Assembly (NCBI GenBank): GCA_018700655.1
Contig: JABIUG010000525.1
Span: 1-34,032, forward strand
DNA length: 34,032 bases
Reading direction: 5' to 3'
Origin: Rhodospirillaceae bacterium
Lineage (GTDB): Bacteria > Pseudomonadota > Alphaproteobacteria > SP197
Below, one piece after another: positions 5,171 through 14,351 of the stretch; positions within the stretch are counted from its first letter, which is position 1, and the number at the start of each line of letters is the position of its first letter. The translations under genes and the position numbers were made by a program. Under the pieces are notes generated by a model. The model saw only the letters and a program-made list of their open reading frames with translations. It ran no database searches and had not been told where the DNA came from.

Positions 5171-5265
5171 ATCCGCCAGGGCCAAGCCGACAAGACGACA
5201 TCGCGTGATCTGGAATAGGATCGAGCCATCAGGTTGGAGACCGCCACAATAGTTGCCTCAGGATT

Positions 5266-5984
5266 TTGCTGCCCGCTCTCCTCGTCCTCGCCTCGGCCCG
5301 CGCGGTGCTGGCCGATACGCTGGAGCCATTAACGGTAGCAGTTGGCCTTTCGCTTCCGCCCTATGTCATCGCCGAGGAACGGCGAGGCATGGAATACGAC
5401 ATTGTCCGTGAAGCTCTCGAGGCGGCCAGTTTCAAGATGGTCCCGATTTTCATGGCCTTCGGCGCCGTGCCCGAGGCAATCGCCGCCGGAGAGGTGGAGG
5501 CGGCCATGACCTTTGGCGCCGATACCGAGTTCGACGTCGCGCTTTCGGCGGTCCACATCGTTTACCACAATCAGGCCATGACGCTGGCGAGCAGCGGCCT
5601 TGCGATCGACCGGATCGGCGACCTCGAGGGCAAATCGATCCTCGCCTTTCAGAACGCCACGCTTTACCTGCCGGCCCTTACCGCGATGCCGTCGCCGATA
5701 ACCCGGACTATGCCGAAGTTGCCGAGCAATACCGCCAGAACCTCGCGCTCTTCACCGGCGAGGTTGAAGTCGCAGTTGCCGACATCAACATTTTCAACTG
5801 GTTCAGCCATGACAGCCGCGTCACATCTGCTTACGACGCCGATCACGCAATCTTCCCGCCGACGCCCTACCATGTCGCCTTCATCTCCGATGGCGCCCGC
5901 GATGCCTTCGATCAGGCGCTCGAAGCCATGAAGGCATCGGGTCGCTACGACGAGATCATCGCTGCCTATGGCGGTGTGCAATAG
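5266..5984 (+). pseudogene. periplasmic solute-binding protein (family-3 SBP-like), frameshifted
   Basis: The frame from the TTG at 5266 gives a signal-like N-terminus and SBP-like sequence up to ...GKSILAFQNATLYL. It then degenerates into S/P/T/R-rich text. The adjacent frame continues sensibly as AGPYRDAVADNPDYAEVAEQYRQNLALFTGEVEVAVADINIFNWF...ASGRYDEIIAAYGGVQ, ending at the stop at 5982-5984. This implies a single 1-nt indel near 5665-5672. Confidence 0.7.
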
Positions 5985-7105: not shown

Positions 7106-8305
7106 GTGAGCGCTTTCCGCACGCTGGATGATCTCGCGGTCGCCGGCAAGAAGGTCCTTGTTCGTCTCGACCTCAATGTTCCCATGAAGGACGGCAGGGT
7201 CACCGACAGCACGCGCATCGAACGTGCCATGCCGACCGTGTGCGAACTCACACAGGCCGGTGCGCGCGTCGTGATCCTGTGCCACTTCGGTCGACCGAAG
7301 GGTCAGATTGTCCCGGAATTGTCGCTCGCTCCTGTGGCAGAAGCGGCATCGGTCGCCCTTGGACAACCGGTTGCCTTTGCGACCGATTGCACAGGCCCGG
7401 CGTCACACACGGTCGTGGCGGCGATGGCAGATGGTGATGTCGCCATGCTCGAAAACCTGCGATTCGAGGCTGGCGAGGAAGGCAACGATGCCGGCTTTGC
7501 CGATGCACTGGCGGCACATGGCGACATCTTCGTGAACGAAGCCTTTTCTGCCGCGCACCGCGCCCACGCTTCGGTCGTCGGGCTGCCGGCACGTCTGCCG
7601 TCGGCTGCCGGGCGTCTGATGCAGCAGGAACTCGAAGCCCTCGGCAGCGCTCTTGGAAAACCAGCGCGCCCGCTTGCCGCGGTGGTCGGCGGCGCCAAGG
7701 TTTCGACCAAACTCGACCTGCTCGGCAACCTCGTGGCTAAGGTCGATCTGCTCGCGATCGGCGGCGGCATGGCCAACACCTTCCTTGCCGCACAGGGCAT
7801 CGAGGTCGGGGCTTCGCTGTGCGAACACGAGATGACCGGTACCGCGCGCGAGATCATGGCAAAAGCAAACGAAGCGGGATGCACGATCGTACTCCCGACC
7901 GATGCGATCGTTGCGGAACGGTTCGAATCGGGGGCACCTGCCGATGTGGTCCCGGTCGATGCCGTACCCGCCGGAAGCATGATCCTCGATGTCGGCCCCG
8001 CCAGCGCGAACGATCTGGCAACCCGTCTGGCCGATTGCCGCACCCTGGTCTGGAACGGCCCGATGGGCGCGTTCGAGCTCGAAGGATTTGACGGCGGCAC
8101 CAACACCGTGGCCCGGGCAGCTGCCGCACTGACGGCTGATGGCAAGCTGCTCTCGGTCGCCGGTGGCGGCGACACGGTTGCCGCGCTGGCTCATGCCGGA
8201 GCGCTCGAACGGTTTTCTTATGTCTCGACCGCCGGCGGCGCTTTTCTCGAGTGGCTCGAAGGCAAGGCCCTGCCCGGTGTCGCTGCCTTGGAATCAGCCG
8301 GCTGA
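7106..8305 (+). CDS. pgk: phosphoglycerate kinase
   Basis: 399 aa with a GTG start. [28 protein letters not shown] and the C-terminal [19 protein letters not shown] are canonical PGK motifs. Confidence 0.97.
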
Positions 8306-8322: not shown

Positions 8323-9672
8323 TTACGACAACCTCTGCCGCACCCGATCCAGCACATTCTGTGGCGGGCTTGCCTTGGTCCAGTCCGCGCGATCGCCATG
8401 ATGGATCGTCGCATCGATGCCAAGCTTGGAAATGACACCGTCTTTTTCCATCGGCTCGGCCCGATCGGCCTGCACGCCCGGCACCACGATCAGATCGCGT
8501 GCCGGGTCCATGCGATTTGCGACGGCATGTTCGACCGCAACCGGATCCCAGGGGTCGACATCGCCATCGACCACGGTGACCTGCTTGATCAGGTTGACCG
8601 CACCCCAGATCGCAAAGATCGCCTTGCGCGCAGCACCGGGCCGGGGCTGATCCAGACTGACCACCGCATGCAATCGCCCGGCACCACCTGCCGTCACGGC
8701 AACCTCGCGCAGAGATGAAACCGGGCCCCTCAGGCTGCGCGCCAGCCCGGCCGCAATCGCTTCAGCGCCCAGCAGAATGTGTTCAGCGCCATATCCCGGC
8801 AGGACACACTGGAAGATTGCATCGCTCCGCCGGGTCATGGATGAGAAGGTCACGACATAACCCGCGCCATAACGTTCATACATGCCGTGAAACTCGCTGA
8901 CAGGCCCCTCCTCGACGGTCTCGTCGGGGTCGAGCACACCTTCCAGGACGATCTCGCAATGGGCCGGCACCGCCAGATCAACCCCATGACACCGCACGGT
9001 CTCGAGCGGCTCTCCCAACAGCGCGCCGGCGACCTCCATCTCGTCATCGCCGAGACCAAGGTAAAAACACGCCGCCAGCATCACGGCGGGATGATTGCCC
9101 AGCGTCACGGCAATCTCCAACCGCTCGCCACGTTCCTTTGCTGCCCGTGCCAGAACAGCCAGATGGTGGTTGGGAGCAATGCCGATAAAAGCACGGTTGC
9201 CGCCAAGCGGCTTCAGCCGTGCAATCGAAAGATTGCCCCGGCCCGTCGCAGTATCCCTGGCGACGATCGCTCCGGCTGAAATATACGGTCCGGTTTCATG
9301 CTCAAAAAAAGTCGGGATCGGAAGCAGTTTCAGATCAGGATTCTCGATCACCACTTCCTGACAGGGCGCCTGTTCAACCCGGAACGGAGCTAACGGATAT
9401 CTCACCGCATCAATCAGCTTGCCCTGGAGGTCGTCCACTGACACGCCCAGTGCAGCCGCAGCTCTGGCACGAGTCGTCAGATGGTTTCCCGTCACCGGCT
9501 CTTCATGTCTGGCAACAGCCTCGAAGAGCAACGGCGATCCACCATCCTGTTCAATCAGATAGGCCGCAATCTCGTGAACCGGGTCTACCGATTCGCCGAC
9601 GCGAACGAGGTCACCTTCGGCTTCACGATCGGCAATCCAGGCGCGCATGGATTGGCGGTGATGTTTGGTCAA
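8323..9672 (-). CDS. UbiD-family (prFMN-dependent) decarboxylase homologue
   Basis: 449 aa. The N-terminal MRAWIADREAEGDLVRVGESVDPVHEIAA, then NLSIARLKP, and EEGPVSEFHGMY (compare the UbiD EGPFGE-x-x-G-x-Y motif). The TTG start is preceded by AGGAGA and overlaps the upstream stop (TTGA). Confidence 0.85.
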   Translation of the reverse strand: MTKHHRQSMRAWIADREAEGDLVRVGESVDPVHEIAAYLIEQDGGSPLLFEAVARHEEPVTGNHLTTRARAAAALGVSVDDLQGKLIDAVRYPLAPFRVEQAPCQEVVIENPDLKLLPIPTFFEHETGPYISAGAIVARDTATGRGNLSIARLKPLGGNRAFIGIAPNHHLAVLARAAKERGERLEIAVTLGNHPAVMLAACFYLGLGDDEMEVAGALLGEPLETVRCHGVDLAVPAHCEIVLEGVLDPDETVEEGPVSEFHGMYERYGAGYVVTFSSMTRRSDAIFQCVLPGYGAEHILLGAEAIAAGLARSLRGPVSSLREVAVTAGGAGRLHAVVSLDQPRPGAARKAIFAIWGAVNLIKQVTVVDGDVDPWDPVAVEHAVANRMDPARDLIVVPGVQADRAEPMEKDGVISKLGIDATIHHGDRADWTKASPPQNVLDRVRQRLS

Positions 9673-11153
9673 GGAACCTCTCCTGCCGACACCAGGTCGT
9701 CGGCCATGATCCGAACGGTCAGATGATCGGCCAAGTTATGCAGCTCTCCACCCAGCGGCCGATCTGCTTCGACCGGCTTCACACACCCACGTACTTCGCT
9801 GAGCAACACACCAAGCTGCGGCGGCAAACGCTCTCGCCCGGTCACCGCCAGCGCCTGGGATGACGCTGTGGCCAGCACCGCAAGGCAGCGATCCAGCGCC
9901 ACGCCCGCCCGGATCGCCTTGGGCCAGGCAAGAAATGCCGGGGCAGTGACGTCGTCCTGGCCGAACACGCTGGCGTCGGCTGCGGGAATGAAGGTTCGCG
10001 AAGCCGCATCCCTCGCCTCTTCCATGAACCCGACAATCGCCATAGGCAGGTAACCCACTGCTCCGTGGCCATCGGACCCTCCTGCCTGACGCCCGGTCAG
10101 CAGGAAATCTGGATAGCCAGAAGCGCGTCCGTTCAGAAGGCCCACGACCAGACGCAGACAGACAAGACACAGATCAGCCCAGGCGCCGGCCAGGCCATCG
10201 ATCGCGGGCGCCGCGACCGCGTTGTGATAACCGCCCGTGCTGGCGCACCAGCCATGGGGATGGTCACCGTCCGCAGGCAGATAGACCGGATTGTGCGTCA
10301 CCGCCGACAGGCTCTGCCCGGCAAGCTCTCGTGCATGGTTAAGCGCAGCATGGGCCTGACCCAGGACGTGCGGTGCAATGCGATAACCGACCGGGGCCTG
10401 GTGTGTTCGCGCCTCGACGCCATCGGTCATGCCATCGAGCAACCGGACGAGATTGTCGAACGCCGTGGTGTTGTAAGTGCCACCCAAAAGGGTGCCCAAC
10501 ACGGGTTCGTAATGTTCCGACGGCGCGTTGAAGGCGACGATCGCCAGCGCCATAACCTCCTCGGCCATGGCCAGACGCCGCTCGGCGACCAGCACCGCAT
10601 CGGCAAGCACGGCCGCAGCAGCGGGCGATCCGTTGATCAGGGCGCCGCGTTCGCCGGCTTCGAGTTCGAGACGCTGTGTCAGTTCCGCGAAAAGCGAATA
10701 AAGCACCAGGATCTCGCCTGGTCCGCCCTGGCCCTGTTGGGCGACCCGCGGGACTGAACCGGAATTGAGCATCGCGACCAGTTCCTCGGCCAGGCGCGGC
10801 GTTGCCATGCCATGGCCCTCGAGCAGATTGGCAAAACGCGCCAGCACCATCGCGCGCGTGACCCGCACGGGATACGGTTCGCCGAACGGCACCGCCGCAG
10901 CGAGCGGTTTCAGCCGTGCCAGGCGATCACGGTCGGCCTGTGTCATCGCTTCGCCGATCATCTCGCCCTGGCCCTGATTGACGCCATAGACCGAAGCGTT
11001 GGGATCCTTGGTTACATATTCAATAAAGGACGCATGGGACGCGGCAATGCAATCCAGCGCCTTGCCGGAGAGCGCAACGTCCTCTCCACCCCATGCAACA
11101 TCGCGCATCGCATCCAGCGACAGATCAAACCGTGTTTCCAGAACTCTTGTCAT
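9669..11153 (-). CDS. aromatic amino acid ammonia-lyase/aminomutase family (HAL/PAL/TAL) homologue lacking the Ala-Ser-Gly MIO triad
   Basis: Family motifs are present: SVYGVNQGQG (HAL: VYGINTGFG), HNPV (NPL), STGGYHNA (GNFHA) and QAPVGYRIAPHVLG (QDPYSLRCQPQVMG). The MIO position reads GQGGPGEILVL instead of GSVGASGDLAPL. I prefer the ATG at 11153; the longest ORF begins at the TTG at 11180. Confidence 0.85.
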   Translation of the reverse strand: MTRVLETRFDLSLDAMRDVAWGGEDVALSGKALDCIAASHASFIEYVTKDPNASVYGVNQGQGEMIGEAMTQADRDRLARLKPLAAAVPFGEPYPVRVTRAMVLARFANLLEGHGMATPRLAEELVAMLNSGSVPRVAQQGQGGPGEILVLYSLFAELTQRLELEAGERGALINGSPAAAAVLADAVLVAERRLAMAEEVMALAIVAFNAPSEHYEPVLGTLLGGTYNTTAFDNLVRLLDGMTDGVEARTHQAPVGYRIAPHVLGQAHAALNHARELAGQSLSAVTHNPVYLPADGDHPHGWCASTGGYHNAVAAPAIDGLAGAWADLCLVCLRLVVGLLNGRASGYPDFLLTGRQAGGSDGHGAVGYLPMAIVGFMEEARDAASRTFIPAADASVFGQDDVTAPAFLAWPKAIRAGVALDRCLAVLATASSQALAVTGRERLPPQLGVLLSEVRGCVKPVEADRPLGGELHNLADHLTVRIMADDLVSAGEVP

Positions 11154-11200
11154 CGCCCACCCGTCATCGTGCGAAAACAACGCTACAGGAAGGCACGGGC

Positions 11201-12226
11201 TCAGGACATCACGTCGTAGGGATCCCAGGCGGGCTCGCCATCACGCATTACTGTTGTGATCACCTCGAGCAACTGGTCATGGGGTATGGCGGTCGTCCCG
11301 ATTTCTGTCCGGAGTTTCGGGACGATCTCTTCGACGCCATCGAAACTCCAACGTCCCTCTCCGCCTTCGATTTCGTTCAGGGTCTCGGCAAGAGGATGGA
11401 AATCCACTCGCAGCGGTGGCTTGCGGCTCACCATCTGCACCCAGCTTTCATAACGAAACTCGAAATCGGCCCGCTCGCCGCTCAGCGTCAGGACCCGGTT
11501 GCACAGGGTCCGGTTGTGCACCGCCATGGGATGGATCACGACATCGCGGTGCTGGGTAACCCGGTGCGCCGCCTGTTCCGGCCAGTCCGCAGGGACGCGC
11601 ACGACAGCAAGGTCGATATCTCCGATCTCCTCGATCATGGCGACACCCTCCTCAAGCGCGGCTTCGCTGATCTCCAGCAAGGCGTCTTCATCAGCCCACA
11701 AGTCCCGATAGTCTTCGGGCTCAAGGATGATGTTCTTCAACTCGTCCAGCAGTCGCGCATAGATCGCCCCGCAATAACCCGGGTAGTCGGCAAAGGCGTT
11801 TTCAGAGATCACCGACCCGACCCAGGGTGAGGTTGCGGGATCAGCCAGACGAGAGATCGTGAAGGCGATGCGCGCGGCGCGCCGGTCGCTGTAAAAACCG
11901 AAGTCACCAGCCTGTGCGGAATCGATCAGAAGTTTACGATTGGCCAGCGCAAACTCCGGCTCGATCATGCAGAACAGCCCGATCAAACCATCCTCGTCGA
12001 AATGATCGTTGGTGACGGTCGCGACATCACAGTGCCATTCCGGCATATCCAGATACTTGAACACCACAGCAACCGAGGTATCGGCCTTCAGCGGCCACGG
12101 CGTTCCGCTCTTGGGCCAATGCGATAAATTGATCACCGTGTTGTCGTTGCGTTGACCGTCGATCACGATGTTGGGGCCCTTGGCCGCATCGGCGTAGGGC
12201 ATGAAACTGTGGCGGCATGGCAGCAT
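11201..12226 (-). CDS. conserved-looking hypothetical protein, no family recognised
   Basis: 341-aa ORF with coding-like composition and a GGGGAAAG RBS before the ATG at 12226 (alternative ATG at 12202). It ends 20-47 nt upstream of the lyase homologue on the same strand, so it is probably the first gene of that operon. Confidence 0.65.
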   Translation of the reverse strand: MLPCRHSFMPYADAAKGPNIVIDGQRNDNTVINLSHWPKSGTPWPLKADTSVAVVFKYLDMPEWHCDVATVTNDHFDEDGLIGLFCMIEPEFALANRKLLIDSAQAGDFGFYSDRRAARIAFTISRLADPATSPWVGSVISENAFADYPGYCGAIYARLLDELKNIILEPEDYRDLWADEDALLEISEAALEEGVAMIEEIGDIDLAVVRVPADWPEQAAHRVTQHRDVVIHPMAVHNRTLCNRVLTLSGERADFEFRYESWVQMVSRKPPLRVDFHPLAETLNEIEGGEGRWSFDGVEEIVPKLRTEIGTTAIPHDQLLEVITTVMRDGEPAWDPYDVMS

Positions 12227-12263
12227 GATGTCTTTCCCCGTTCAGGACACCAGTTTGACGCAC

Positions 12264-12701
12264 ATGAATAGAAAAGCGCAAGCTTTACAAAAAGACATTC
12301 CCGCCGTCCTCGTGTGCGACCTGGCAGAAGTCCGTCATGTCACTGTCATGGTGAAACGCATCGCAAAGCCGGTCCTTCTTGTCACCGAAACCGAGGCCTG
12401 CGCCAGGCTTGGGCCGGGCTTTCTGCTCGCCATGACCGGCGGGGATGGCCAGCGACCCGATCTTGTCCGCGCCCTGATCGACTGCGGCAGCGATGCTGGT
12501 TACGCCATGCTTGCGCTGCGCCTTGGCTGGCGCGAGATTCATGTTACCGGCGCACCCGAATCTGTGGTCCGCATTGGTGAAATGACCGAAGCTGCCGGTG
12601 GCCGATTCCACGCCATTCTTCCCGTGACATTCAATTTCGCGGAGTCCGGCCCTGTGGATCAACGGCTCGAAGACTGGTTGATCGGTGACGCATCCAATTG
12701 A
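12264..12701 (+). CDS. hypothetical protein (145 aa)
   Basis: The ATG at 12264 avoids overlapping the divergent gene; the track ORF starts at 12201. It shows G/C-rich third codon positions but I recognise no motif. It competes with a 125-aa antisense ORF. Confidence 0.45.
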   Translation: MNRKAQALQKDIPAVLVCDLAEVRHVTVMVKRIAKPVLLVTETEACARLGPGFLLAMTGGDGQRPDLVRALIDCGSDAGYAMLALRLGWREIHVTGAPESVVRIGEMTEAAGGRFHAILPVTFNFAESGPVDQRLEDWLIGDASN

Positions 12702-12768: not shown

Positions 12769-13689
12769 ATGAAGATCACCCGCCGCGTGAAGCAGATATT
12801 GTCCTGTTACGAGGGCGAGACGCCCGGGGTTAAAGCCAACCTTGCGCGCATACTCATGCATGGCCGACTGGGCGGCAGCGGCCACGTTGTTATTCTGCCG
12901 GTCGATCAGGGTTGGGAACACGGGCCGGCCAGGAGCTTCGCCAAGAACGCTCCGGCCTATGATCCCCATTACCACTTTCAGCTGGCGATCGATGCCGGCC
13001 TCAATGCCTATGCCGCACCTCTCGGGTTTCTCGAAGCCGGCGCCGATACCTTTGCCGGCGCCATGCCGTTGATTCTCAAGGCCAACAGCTCCAACAGCCT
13101 CGCGACCGAAAAAGACCAGGCGATCACGGCATCGGTTCAGGACGCCCTGCGTCTTGGCTGCTCGGCGATCGGATTTACGATCTATCCGGGCTCGGTGTAC
13201 CAGTTCGAAATGGTCGAGGAAGTCCGCGAGATGTCGCTTGAGGCGAAATCCTGCGGTATCGCAACGGTCGTATGGTCCTATCCACGCGGCGGCAATATCT
13301 CCAAGCAGGGCGAGACAGCAGTCGACGTCACCGCCTATGCCGCCCACCTGGCCGCACAGATTGGCGCCAACATCATCAAGGTCAAGCCGCCCACGGACTT
13401 CATCGAGCAGGACGAGGCGCGCAAGGTCTACGAGAGCGAGGGCATCGATATCTCGACGCTCAAGGCGCGGATCGAACATGTCATGCAGTCGACTTTCAAT
13501 GGCCGGCGGATCGTTGTGTTCTCGGGCGGTGCCGCCAAGGATCTCGACGGTGTCTTCTCCGAAATCCGCGAAATCGCAGCCGGTGGCGCATCGGGCTCGA
13601 TCATCGGGCGCAACACCTTCCAGCGTCAGCCCGAAGACGCCCACGCCATGCTCGACCACATCATCAAGATCTACCAGGGCAAGGAATAA
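12769..13689 (+). CDS. fba: class I fructose-bisphosphate aldolase (DhnA/FbaB-type)
   Basis: 306 aa. VVILPVDQGWEHGP, AAQIGANIIKVKPP (Schiff-base lysine context) and GASGSIIGRN. Its position after tkt-gap-pgk fits the call. Confidence 0.9.
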   Translation: MKITRRVKQILSCYEGETPGVKANLARILMHGRLGGSGHVVILPVDQGWEHGPARSFAKNAPAYDPHYHFQLAIDAGLNAYAAPLGFLEAGADTFAGAMPLILKANSSNSLATEKDQAITASVQDALRLGCSAIGFTIYPGSVYQFEMVEEVREMSLEAKSCGIATVVWSYPRGGNISKQGETAVDVTAYAAHLAAQIGANIIKVKPPTDFIEQDEARKVYESEGIDISTLKARIEHVMQSTFNGRRIVVFSGGAAKDLDGVFSEIREIAAGGASGSIIGRNTFQRQPEDAHAMLDHIIKIYQGKE

Positions 13690-13692
13690 CCC

Positions 13693-14307
13693 CTGCCCGC
13701 CGGTCATCAGGCGGCGGAAAACCGCCTCTACCTCGTTTCACCTCCGGCGTTCGAGCCCGACGTCTTTGTCGACTCCCTTGCCGCGGCACTCGACGCCGGC
13801 GAAGTCGCATGCTTCCTGTTGGCGCTGGAAACCGCCGACGAGGATGTTTGGCGATGCGCCTGTGAGCATCTCGTTCCGCTCGTCCAGTCCCGCGATGTCG
13901 CCTTCCTCTTGAACGAACGCTCCGGGCTGGTTTGCGAATGTGGCGCCGATGGCGTTCATGTCGAGCGCCCGGCCAAGGCCCTTCGCAAGAACCTGCCGAC
14001 CGGTGCCATCCTTGGTGCGGGCTGTGTCCTGTCGCGCCACGATGCCATGCTGGCCGGAGAAGCAGGCGCCGATTATGTCGCCTTCGGGCCCTGGGATGAC
14101 GCTGCCAGAGAGCAACTCGCATGGTGGCAGGCGGTGATGGAACTTCCCTGCGTTGCCCTGGGCGGTCTGACGCTTGACGATGTTGCTGCTGCCGCAGTTG
14201 GAGCCGATTTCATCGCCTTGCAGGAGGCAGTCTGGAACCATGCCGAAGGTCCGGCAGCAGCAATTCGCGCGGCAATCGCTGCCGTGGACAACCCAGCGCC
14301 CCACTGA
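13693..14307 (+). CDS. thiamine-phosphate synthase (ThiE)-like protein; start codon non-canonical or unresolved
   Basis: The in-frame translation upstream of the first canonical start (TTG at 13819) reads ...AENRLYLVSPPAFEPDVFVDSLAAALDAGEVACF, which is a typical ThiE N-terminus. Downstream motifs are GADGVHV, ADYVAFGP and PCVALGG. The only start-like codon after the fba TAA is the CTG at 13693, preceded by AAGGAA. The conservative call is 13819..14307. Confidence 0.65.
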   Translation: MPAGHQAAENRLYLVSPPAFEPDVFVDSLAAALDAGEVACFLLALETADEDVWRCACEHLVPLVQSRDVAFLLNERSGLVCECGADGVHVERPAKALRKNLPTGAILGAGCVLSRHDAMLAGEAGADYVAFGPWDDAAREQLAWWQAVMELPCVALGGLTLDDVAAAAVGADFIALQEAVWNHAEGPAAAIRAAIAAVDNPAPH

Positions 14308-14351
14308 TAGCTTCCGCCGCCCAAACAACCCCGTATTTTCAGGTCAAAAGC

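Follow-up and report, generated by a model that had tools for sequence, protein, structure and literature searches.

Why does a central-carbon gene cluster carry, between the genes for phosphoglycerate kinase (pgk) and fructose-bisphosphate aldolase (fba), a block of genes with no link to glycolysis, and do these genes act together? The question is raised by contig JABIUG010000525.1 of a Rhodospirillaceae bacterium (assembly GCA_018700655.1), of which the whole stretch analyzed here, referred to as the window, comprises 34,032 nucleotides. Three minus-strand genes code for a protein of family DUF6687, a homologue of the aromatic amino acid ammonia-lyases, and a member of the UbiD family of decarboxylases; a small open reading frame (ORF) diverges from them. 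The first-pass annotation of this DNA had placed the four ORFs between pgk and fba and had noted the tight packing of the genes, the gap of 20 to 47 nucleotides upstream of the lyase, the TTGA overlap and the AGGAGA ribosome-binding site at the lyase-UbiD junction, and the lack of the catalytic triad that forms the 4-methylideneimidazole-5-one (MIO) group; neither UbiX nor mobility genes or flanking repeats had been seen nearby. All of these observations were reproduced by the ORF map, by direct reading of the junctions, and by tblastn and Pfam surveys. The interpretation that we favor, with moderate confidence, is that the block combines a resident DUF6687 gene and small ORF with a lyase-UbiD cassette for the catabolism of 2-thiohistidine betaines of the ergothioneine and S-methyl-ergothioneine family. 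Both of these thiohistidine betaines abound in fungi and actinobacteria, and microbes that degrade them release trimethylamine.

The lyase and UbiD genes evidently form a genuine, coupled, and evolutionarily conserved pair. The TTG start codon of UbiD is preceded at a distance of 7 nucleotides by the Shine-Dalgarno sequence AGGAGA and is overlapped by the lyase stop codon (Table 1). In the close genomic relatives (loci L004 to L013, lyases 67-72% identical), UbiD followed the lyase on the same strand in all cases, and the two genes of relatives were separated by 6 to 27 nucleotides or overlapped. A metagenome scan, seeded with UbiD only and covering the best 80 of 356 relatives, gave the same arrangement: for UbiD proteins at least 70% identical to that of the window, the lyase gene was located directly 5' of UbiD in nine of the nine evaluable loci, and pgk was convergent 12 to 42 nucleotides past UbiD in five of these nine. 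All neighborhood counts reported here were obtained by tblastn and depend on thresholds and contig ends, and the samples selected by lyase or by UbiD are each biased toward their own seed. The cassette was found in at least five settings, including the pgk-fba gap, the vicinity of a Rieske/VanA-type oxygenase gene, and the vicinity of a 2OG-Fe(II) oxygenase gene, and these settings have no other gene in common. Since they are unrelated and mostly devoid of DUF6687, the pair, and not the trio, is the unit. The block is thus best described, from these comparisons, as a mobile two-gene cassette juxtaposed with two unrelated resident genes. The co-occurrence of the trio across genomes, which the first-pass annotation had envisaged, therefore holds for the lyase and UbiD and fails for DUF6687, and its statement on the absence of a link to glycolysis stands for the pair.

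The window lyase matched the PF00221 profile (E = 1.9e-48, 165.7 bits for a cutoff of 27.3) in two segments interrupted at the MIO site. This site reads GQGGPGEIL, versus GTVGASGDL in tyrosine ammonia-lyase (TAL), so that G153-P154-G155, which is G-A-G in most members of the clade and contains no Ser, takes the place of Ala-Ser-Gly. The motif G-G-[P/A]-G-E was invariant across the 85 sequences of the lyase clade. The absence of the Ser-containing tripeptide, together with scores far under the cutoffs of all NCBIfam equivalogs for histidine ammonia-lyase (HAL), TAL, and phenylalanine ammonia-lyase (PAL), places the protein outside the MIO-dependent HAL, PAL, TAL, and tyrosine aminomutase (TAM) enzymes. 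Alignment of 19 homologues (49-71% identity) revealed many invariant residues, and those conserved in all 85 sequences included Y65 (the base), Q261, R267, N183, and N297 (carboxylate ligands), and D409, an acidic residue at the position of HAL E414. The MIO-less members of PF00221 characterized so far are all trimethylammonia-lyases (bioRxiv 10.64898/2026.04.22.720169; bioRxiv 10.1101/2025.08.13.670108), and the marks of these enzymes are the absence of MIO and the retention of the Tyr that accepts the beta-proton and of the Gln, Arg, and Asn that bind the carboxylate (bioRxiv 10.1101/2025.08.13.670108). All of these marks are present in the window lyase (no MIO; Y65, Q261, R267, N183, and N297). 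The protein is a conserved enzyme without MIO, rather than the product of a decaying gene. Because the characterized MIO-less members are trimethylammonia-lyases and the Tyr, Gln, Arg, and Asn residues are invariant, an active lyase is likelier than the role that had been suggested for the protein, namely that of a binding, scaffold, or non-MIO enzyme.

The predicted structure of the lyase (AlphaFold2 model, mean pLDDT of 84) was closest in Foldseek to ergothionase 6s7j (template modeling score, TM, of 0.83), with HAL and TAL tied, and the TM scores to HAL, TAL, TAM, and ergothionase ranged from 0.74 to 0.84. In a collection of species-representative genomes, the clade was represented by 217 loci in metagenome-assembled genomes of Rhodospirillales, in Dongia, Rhodobacterales, Mesorhizobium, Inquilinus, and Steroidobacteraceae, and in others. 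The homologues carry the database name 'histidine ammonia-lyase', which is generic or probably wrong. Two subtypes were distinguished by the loop that follows the catalytic Tyr. In a neighbor-joining tree (the trees presented here are without support values), the UbiD-linked lyases fell into five subclades interleaved with lyases encoded without partner genes. Two loci, L033 and L036, encode a second, divergent MIO-less lyase paralogue (42% identical) head-to-head with the first, which lies at approximately 10001 of the locus; this paralogue has other residues in place of E73, K91, and Y161 of the main clade.

The UbiD protein of the window matched PF20695, PF01977, and PF20696 (5e-59), and scored 291 bits with TIGR00148 for a cutoff of 244.85; profile searches thus confirmed the PF00221 and PF01977 memberships proposed for the two proteins by the first-pass annotation. 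Its best match in the PDB was HmfF (6H6V, also 6H6X; 7.5e-82, 41% identity), the enzyme deposited as 6H6V (PMC8988006), and the second-best was AnInD, an indole-3-carboxylate decarboxylase. Structures of Fdc1 were matched at 1e-17 to 1e-22 only, and over part of the protein. This distant and partial match places the protein outside the arylacrylate decarboxylases of the Fdc1 type, and the analogy that had been drawn with the coupling of PAL or TAL to Fdc1 is weak because the UbiD is HmfF-like (7.5e-82). Orthology with HmfF is not supported either, in view of the 41% identity, of a separate clade in the tree, and of the gene context: no hmf gene was found in approximately 115 loci, and the context was of the type found in ergothioneine (Ert) catabolism. 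The UbiD proteins of the four genomic contexts described below (types A to D) were monophyletic in the neighbor-joining tree and set apart from HmfF, with type A, that of the window, sister to types B and D. Identity to HmfF was 36-41%, versus 47-78% within the clade. The motifs N147..R152, H169/H170, D210-E211-x-E213, and E255-G-P-x-S-E260, as aligned to HmfF, are conserved clade-wide, the metal and phosphate ligands and the E(D)-R-E network are kept, and VSEF[H/P]G, the counterpart of FGEYPR in HmfF, is the signature of the clade. The window UbiD therefore presumably is a (de)carboxylase of a distinct HmfF-related clade that depends on prenylated flavin mononucleotide (prFMN); dependence on this cofactor is presumed because sister clusters encode UbiX. 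The JGI name '2,5-furandicarboxylate decarboxylase 1' given to homologues is based on similarity and is probably wrong.

The gene neighborhoods of the relatives suggest a substrate class. Type A, which comprises the window and its close relatives, consists of the lyase-UbiD pair without Ert neighbors, and the annotated neighbors of type-A cassettes located outside the pgk-fba gap showed no common theme. Type B displays the order lyase, UbiD, ErtD-like hydantoinase (552 bits, under the cutoff of 600), Asp/Glu/hydantoin racemase, and CN-hydrolase, with genes for a choline-dehydrogenase-like GMC oxidoreductase and an AKR divergent from the operon. In type C, found in Rhodobacterales, Mesorhizobium-like, and Steroidobacteraceae genomes, the lyase is accompanied by UbiX, UbiD, ErtD (hydantoin-5-propionate amidohydrolase, NF058538, 779 bits for a cutoff of 600), ErtE (N-carbamyl-L-glutamate amidohydrolase, NF058540, 562 bits for a cutoff of 520), and a LysR regulator; an SBP_bac_5 ABC transporter is often encoded as well. 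Type D comprises a divergent LysR gene followed by UbiD, a LIV-type ABC transporter (five genes), S-methyl-thiohydantoin desulfurase (NF058532, 540 bits for a cutoff of 450), in some loci GST, and S-methyl-thiourocanate hydratase (NF058531, 947-957 bits for a cutoff of 880). A second operon usually lies beside type D and contains ertD, ertE, a thiohydantoin desulfurase gene (602 bits, cutoff 440), and a thiourocanate hydratase gene (1010 bits, cutoff 930). UbiX of types C and D scored 238-263 bits with NF004685 (cutoff 188).

The association of this UbiD clade with Ert genes was frequent. Among seven inspected UbiD relatives of 61-63% identity located on long contigs, one was of type B and six were of type D. 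For metagenome UbiD proteins 57-65% identical to that of the window, a LIV-type ABC transporter was encoded directly 3' in 41 of 55 loci and at least one Ert gene was present in 47 of 68; when at least 5 kb was available on both sides, Ert genes were present in 15 of 15 loci and a lyase in only two. Inspection of type-D operons revealed no PF00221 gene within 8-9 kb. The two types of gene are not mutually exclusive, however, since the Roseiarcus locus L051 and the locus L128 combine both in one same-strand operon, which starts with UbiD and the ABC transporter, continues with genes for S-methyl-thiohydantoin desulfurase, GST, and S-methyl-thiourocanate hydratase, and ends with UbiX and the lyase; a rule of 'lyase XOR hydratase' is therefore not absolute. 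Two claims made from the window alone do not survive these comparisons. The pathway had been called unrecognized, and relatives of its genes are found in ergothioneine and S-methyl-thiourocanate clusters with ErtB to ErtE above equivalog cutoffs; the missing UbiX had been treated as an anomaly, and UbiX does occur in further architectures of this cluster family.

Three additional gene sets were observed in these clusters. In the type-D loci L087 (13961-17434) and L090 (14961-18767), the region 3' of the ABC transporter encodes an ORF of approximately 154 residues, UbiX, a DUF2390/TIGR02444 protein, a second UbiD-like protein that has no N-terminal domain and scores below the TIGR00148 cutoff (161 bits), and a 211-residue ORF, which together may form a module for prFMN supply or maturation. 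Loci L085 and L089 each contain three urocanase-family paralogues. Two of them score above equivalog cutoffs, one for thiourocanate hydratase and the other for S-methyl-thiourocanate hydratase, whereas the remaining paralogue (17701-19413 in L089) is under both cutoffs and above that of hutU, and could possibly have a third substrate specificity. In the type-C clusters of Steroidobacteraceae (L049, L064, and L083), genes for a glutamine-synthetase-like ligase, an FAD amine oxidase, and a gamma-glutamyl-GABA-hydrolase-like amidase are located 5' of ErtE and ErtD. This Puu-like set, of which all members are below NCBIfam cutoffs, could handle an amine product via gamma-glutamylation.

For the cassette of the window, we propose two consecutive steps. 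In the first, Tyr65 of the lyase would take the beta-proton of a 2-thiohistidine betaine while Gln261, Arg267, and Asn297 hold the carboxylate, and the elimination of trimethylamine would leave an imidazolyl-acrylate of the (S-methyl)thiourocanate type. MIO would not be needed because trimethylamine is a good enough leaving group. The behavior of the family and the genomic context make this elimination probable. In the second step, UbiD equipped with prFMN would reversibly decarboxylate the thio-imidazole acrylic acid to 4-vinyl-2-thioimidazole and CO2. This step is put forward more tentatively, and it is suggested because a minimal mobile cassette in which UbiD follows the lyase argues for consecutive reactions. 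In types A and B, prFMN would be provided by a ubiX gene located elsewhere in the genome, housekeeping copies of ubiX being common in many Alphaproteobacteria.

Several observations weigh against this proposal. The window and its closest relatives have no Ert gene, transporter gene, or UbiX gene within 10-20 kb, and the relatives from which the pathway is assigned have lyases 50-57% and UbiD proteins 47-63% identical to those of the window. Among the 87 lyase loci of the pooled scan, 49 were 'solo', with none of the usual partners within 10 kb. The lyase profile matched ergothionase 6s7j at 2.7e-20 (17th rank) versus approximately 1e-30 for the MIO enzymes HAL and TAM. The position occupied in HAL and in histidine-betaine lyase by the His that binds the N-tau of the imidazole has no His in this clade, which displays K91-[P/A]-[L/F]-[A/P]-A-A instead, as judged by eye from a HMMER pairwise alignment. 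In the loci of types B and C, at least 17 in number, no urocanase-family hydratase or PF06032 desulfurase was found within 10 kb, and the proposal does not account for this absence. Finally, type-D operons co-transcribe UbiD with hydratases that need the acrylate, in the absence of a lyase within 8-9 kb.

The latter co-expression favors removal of another carboxyl group, or carboxylation in vivo. UbiD might act before the hydratase and strip an extra carboxyl, carried by ring C5 or otherwise sp2-bound, from a carboxylated thio-imidazole precursor, thereby generating (S-methyl)thiourocanate or its betaine. In agreement with this possibility, UbiD is the first gene of type-D operons and is followed by the importer and by a hydratase and a desulfurase that need an intact acrylate, without a lyase nearby, and HmfF, the closest characterized relative, removes a ring carboxyl of a five-membered heteroaromatic dicarboxylate (PMC8988006). 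The coupled minimal cassette, in which UbiD follows the lyase, suggests on the contrary that the two enzymes act consecutively on one metabolite, and types B and C would still be devoid of a hydratase. In addition, we know of no natural carboxylated derivative of ergothioneine or thiourocanate. Prior removal of another carboxyl, although the main alternative to the second step proposed above, is for these reasons considered unlikely.

A different substrate for the cassette appears improbable, namely a betaine with a non-imidazole aromatic ring, such as hypaphorine or a Tyr or Phe betaine, from which the lyase would produce an arylacrylate and trimethylamine and UbiD a vinyl-arene, in the manner of the route from PAL or TAL to Fdc1, type A then being functionally separate from its Ert-linked relatives. 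The absence of Ert neighbors in type A, the lack in the lyase of the imidazole-binding His of HAL and of histidine-betaine lyase, the frequency of solo lyases in legume symbionts (Mesorhizobium), and the second rank of AnInD among the PDB matches of UbiD are all compatible with such a substrate. The same holds for the lyase subtype of type A, which is characterized by an NQGQG loop, P154, and H296 and is unlike most Ert-linked lyases. However, this subtype also occurs in type-C clusters of Rhodobacterales together with ErtD, ErtE, and UbiX; the other active-site positions of the lyase are invariant in every context, and the UbiD proteins form a single clade with those embedded in Ert clusters, type A being sister to B and D.

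The absence of hydratase genes from types B and C leaves room for a non-decarboxylative, urocanase-like reaction of UbiD, in which the prFMN iminium would act as NAD+ does in urocanase, forming a covalent adduct with the thio-imidazole and enabling hydration, and possibly desulfuration, of the acrylate. UbiD would then replace ErtB and ErtC in these types, in which at least 17 loci combine the lyase, UbiD, hydantoinase, and carbamoylase with no hydratase or desulfurase within 10 kb. The covalent adduct between C1' of prFMN and C2 of imidazole in HudA provides a chemical precedent (PMC7976604). We nevertheless regard this reading as distinctly improbable, since all characterized members of the UbiD family are (de)carboxylases, the full catalytic set of a decarboxylase is conserved, and type D has UbiD beside bona fide hydratases and desulfurases. 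The latter operons also weaken the candidate role of UbiD as a simple replacement of ErtB and ErtC. A wider form of the idea, in which the clade would perform on 2-thio-imidazole acrylates a prFMN chemistry new to the family, either urocanase-like hydration or desulfuration or a reversible carboxylation that scavenges vinyl-thioimidazole released by carriers of the cassette, is slightly less improbable and still quite unlikely. If it were true, the clade of MIO-less lyases would represent a new route, widely distributed among bacteria, from thiohistidine betaines to trimethylamine.

A single three-gene module of DUF6687, lyase, and UbiD, with the lyase homologue as a binding or scaffold protein, is almost certainly not the explanation: the genes are tightly packed on one strand in the window and the arrangement of all four genes is shared with a 62%-identical relative as well as with L009, L097, and L102, but DUF6687 and the small ORF occupy the same gap without lyase or UbiD in L002, the lyase-UbiD pair occupies it without DUF6687 in L005 and is found in at least four other contexts, DUF6687 accompanies few lyase or close UbiD loci, the lyase retains all catalytic residues, and the fold of DUF6687 suggests phosphoesterase chemistry. 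The layout of the 62%-identical relative is that of the window (tkt-SBP-gap-pgk, then UbiD, lyase, and DUF6687, then the small ORF and fba). In L002, from a 5.5-Mb genome (DUF6687 54% identical), pgk is followed by a gene for an MFS transporter, DUF6687, the small ORF, and fba, and in L005 the lyase-UbiD pair and the small ORF lie between pgk and fba. The occurrence of DUF6687 without lyase and UbiD, and vice versa, indicates that the trio is not one unit. DUF6687 was present in two of 80 lyase-selected genome loci, with a partial remnant in a third (three of 81 lyase loci when the window is counted), all three being in the pgk-fba setting, and in two of the six evaluable metagenome loci encoding a UbiD at least 70% identical. 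In L003 (50% identical), its gene is located between isocitrate-dehydrogenase-like and DAO genes, an unrelated context.

PF20392 (DUF6687) matched the 341-residue protein at 1.9e-73 over profile positions 3-338 of 339. The homologues formed 958 clusters, of which none had a functional name, and no papers were found under the name DUF6687. The AlphaFold2 model of the protein (pLDDT 87.8) gave top Foldseek matches in the PDB that all belonged to the DHH family and were weak (E of 4e-3 to 3e-2, TM of 0.2-0.3). The invariant sequence H75-F-D77-E-D79-G80 resembles DHH motif I (H-x-D-x-D-G). DHH motifs beyond motif I were not identified, and the DHH families of Pfam gave no match even at E = 10. The likeness to the DHH/DHHA1 phosphoesterases (PPX1, NrnA/NrN, DhhP, and type II PPase) thus consists of the fold matches and of the motif-I-like HFDEDG, and the difference of the weak fold scores and the lack of a Pfam DHH match. 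On the basis of the model, DUF6687 may be a phosphoesterase of the DHH type.

The small ORF is a real gene of the plus strand, since its frame was conserved in L001, L002, L005, L009, L011, and L016 (70-145 bits versus 30-66 bits for the antisense frame). The protein has 131-166 residues in relatives, in which gene calls of 131-143 residues were obtained for the two closest layouts, and its gene is always located immediately 5' of fba throughout the lineage, irrespective of the presence of DUF6687 or of lyase-UbiD. It had no match in Pfam or NCBIfam, including in a relaxed Pfam search. The genes for DUF6687 and the small protein are therefore regarded as residents of a variable pgk-fba gap in this Rhodospirillales-like lineage, functionally untied to the lyase and UbiD.

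The features of the block and of its flanks are listed in Table 1. Homologues of the lyase start at M10 of the ORF (ATG at 11153), which is probably the true start and gives a protein of 494 residues; the distance from the DUF6687 stop codon is 20 nucleotides for the TTG start and 47 for the ATG. Gene calls were based on a frame score, GC content at third minus second codon positions (GC3 minus GC2), as greedy calling of the longest ORFs gave antisense artefacts in DNA of 62% GC. The whole 34-kb window was devoid of UbiX in the tblastn and Pfam surveys, and no methylamine or trimethylamine utilization genes were found in it. At the block, no meaningful flanking repeat, composition anomaly, or promoter or terminator signal above that of shuffled sequences was detected, which gives no hint of the route of acquisition.

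Table 1. Coordinates of the genes of the pgk-fba block, of the lyase-UbiD junction, and of the flanking genes in the window.
Feature	Coordinates	Strand	Remarks
pgk, left flank	7106-8305	+	ORF call; PF00162 in syntenic relative; convergent with UbiD, spacer of 17 nt
UbiD-like ORF	8323-9672	-	449 aa; TTG start; translationally coupled to lyase
Lyase/UbiD coupling junction	9666-9690	-	cTTGA; lyase stop TGA overlaps UbiD TTG; read directly
Lyase-like ORF	9669-11180	-	503 aa; PF00221
DUF6687 ORF	11201-12226	-	341 aa; probable start M9, 333 aa; PF20392
Small divergent ORF	12201-12701	+	145 aa from ATG 12264; up to 166 aa from 12201
Class I fructose-bisphosphate aldolase (DeoC/LacD type), right flank	12769-13689	+	NF006704, 516 bits (cutoff 277)

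Two observations concern the surrounding central-carbon genes. Between tkt and gap, an SBP_bac_3-type gene (5251-5981, plus strand) is split, being in frame 1 up to 5673 and in frame 3 from 5655, and intact orthologues of 251 residues are encoded in L009 and L098. The split is a frameshift, due to a pseudogene or an assembly error, and accounts for the odd low-complexity tail of the 221-residue ORF and for its missing Pfam match. Downstream from fba, the putative ThiE-like ORF (13819-14307, plus strand, within 13738-14328) matched PF02581 at 7.6e-21 over profile positions 40-179 only; it has 162 residues, versus 147-201 in relatives, and is overlapped by an antisense ORF of higher GC3.

Together, these results suggest that the cassette belongs to a known pathway family, to which it would add a conserved, unexplained prFMN enzyme and a new clade of MIO-less lyases. 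The comparisons reveal a distinct UbiD clade as a near-constant member of the apparent thiohistidine-betaine clusters of soil, peat, and marine bacteria, and, as its frequent partner, a separate clade of MIO-less lyases that is found in no fewer than 217 species-level genomes, among them those of cultured Mesorhizobium, Inquilinus, and Dongia. A role of UbiD in the breakdown of ergothioneine-type compounds appears not to have been described previously. The full-text literature contained nothing linking UbiD or prFMN with the metabolism of ergothioneine, thiourocanate, or urocanate, within a coverage that largely leaves out subscription papers, so that a prior mention is possible. If our proposal is correct, the cassette would represent a new enzyme step or branch in thiohistidine catabolism, the substrate range of prFMN enzymes, and possibly their chemistry, would be widened to thio-imidazoles, and the widespread annotations 'histidine ammonia-lyase' and '2,5-furandicarboxylate decarboxylase' would be corrected. 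The cassette of the window offers a minimal two-gene system for testing the reaction. In addition, DUF6687 gains a first structural lead, which is DHH-like, and the pgk-fba gap of this lineage appears to acquire accessory genes repeatedly.

Among known enzymes, the window lyase is to be compared with ergothionase and the other trimethylammonia-lyases (Td_ETL of T. denticola, 6S7J; ErtA of Burkholderia; SO_3057, SO_3299, and Swoo_3913 of Shewanella). In common are the PF00221 fold, the absence of Ala-Ser-Gly, and the presence of Tyr and of Gln, Arg, and Asn, and the likeness extends to the genomic linkage of relatives of the window lyase with ErtB-E-type genes and to the top Foldseek match, 6s7j. 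This linkage is absent from the window and type A and present in types B and C and in L051 and L128. The window lyase differs in belonging to a separate clade, with 17-18% identity, that has features of its own (the invariant K91, the G-G-[P/A]-G-E site, and the lack of the N-tau His). Elsewhere, the N-tau and N-pi of the imidazole are liganded by H83 and E414 in HAL and by H117 and E467 in Swoo_3913, and Lys384 of Td_ETL binds the thiolate of the substrate. Residues 364-410 of the window lyase contain no Lys, and the invariant K91 might, speculatively, take over this role. The Shewanella enzymes are located in the periplasm and have flavocytochrome reductases as partners, whereas the window lyase is cytoplasmic and paired with UbiD.

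With HmfF, the 2,5-furandicarboxylate decarboxylase, the window UbiD shares the three UbiD domains and the metal, phosphate, and Glu-Arg-Glu motifs; it differs by its distinct clade, its own signature, and a context of thio-imidazole catabolism in place of hmf genes. The coupling of PAL or TAL with Fdc1 or PAD, in which a lyase of the same superfamily is followed by a UbiD-family decarboxylase, is the model for the second step proposed here. The differences are that the window lyase has no MIO and presumably acts on a betaine, that the UbiD is far from Fdc1, and that relatives of the window genes co-occur with hydratases that consume the acrylate. NCBIfam contains no specific model for the lyase clade or for the UbiD clade.

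The five-step pathway of ergothioneine catabolism, ErtA to ErtE, reportedly described by Muramatsu et al. and by Beliaeva, Leisinger, and Seebeck in 2021, is said to include no UbiD or UbiX step, and to our knowledge no prFMN enzyme figures in the described catabolism of ergothioneine or S-methyl-thiourocanate. The window departs from this pathway in having the lyase-UbiD pair only, without any of ErtB to ErtE, and resembles it through the relatives of both of its genes, which are located in clusters whose remaining genes score above the equivalog cutoffs of NCBIfam for ErtB, ErtC, ErtD, and ErtE and for the S-methyl variants.

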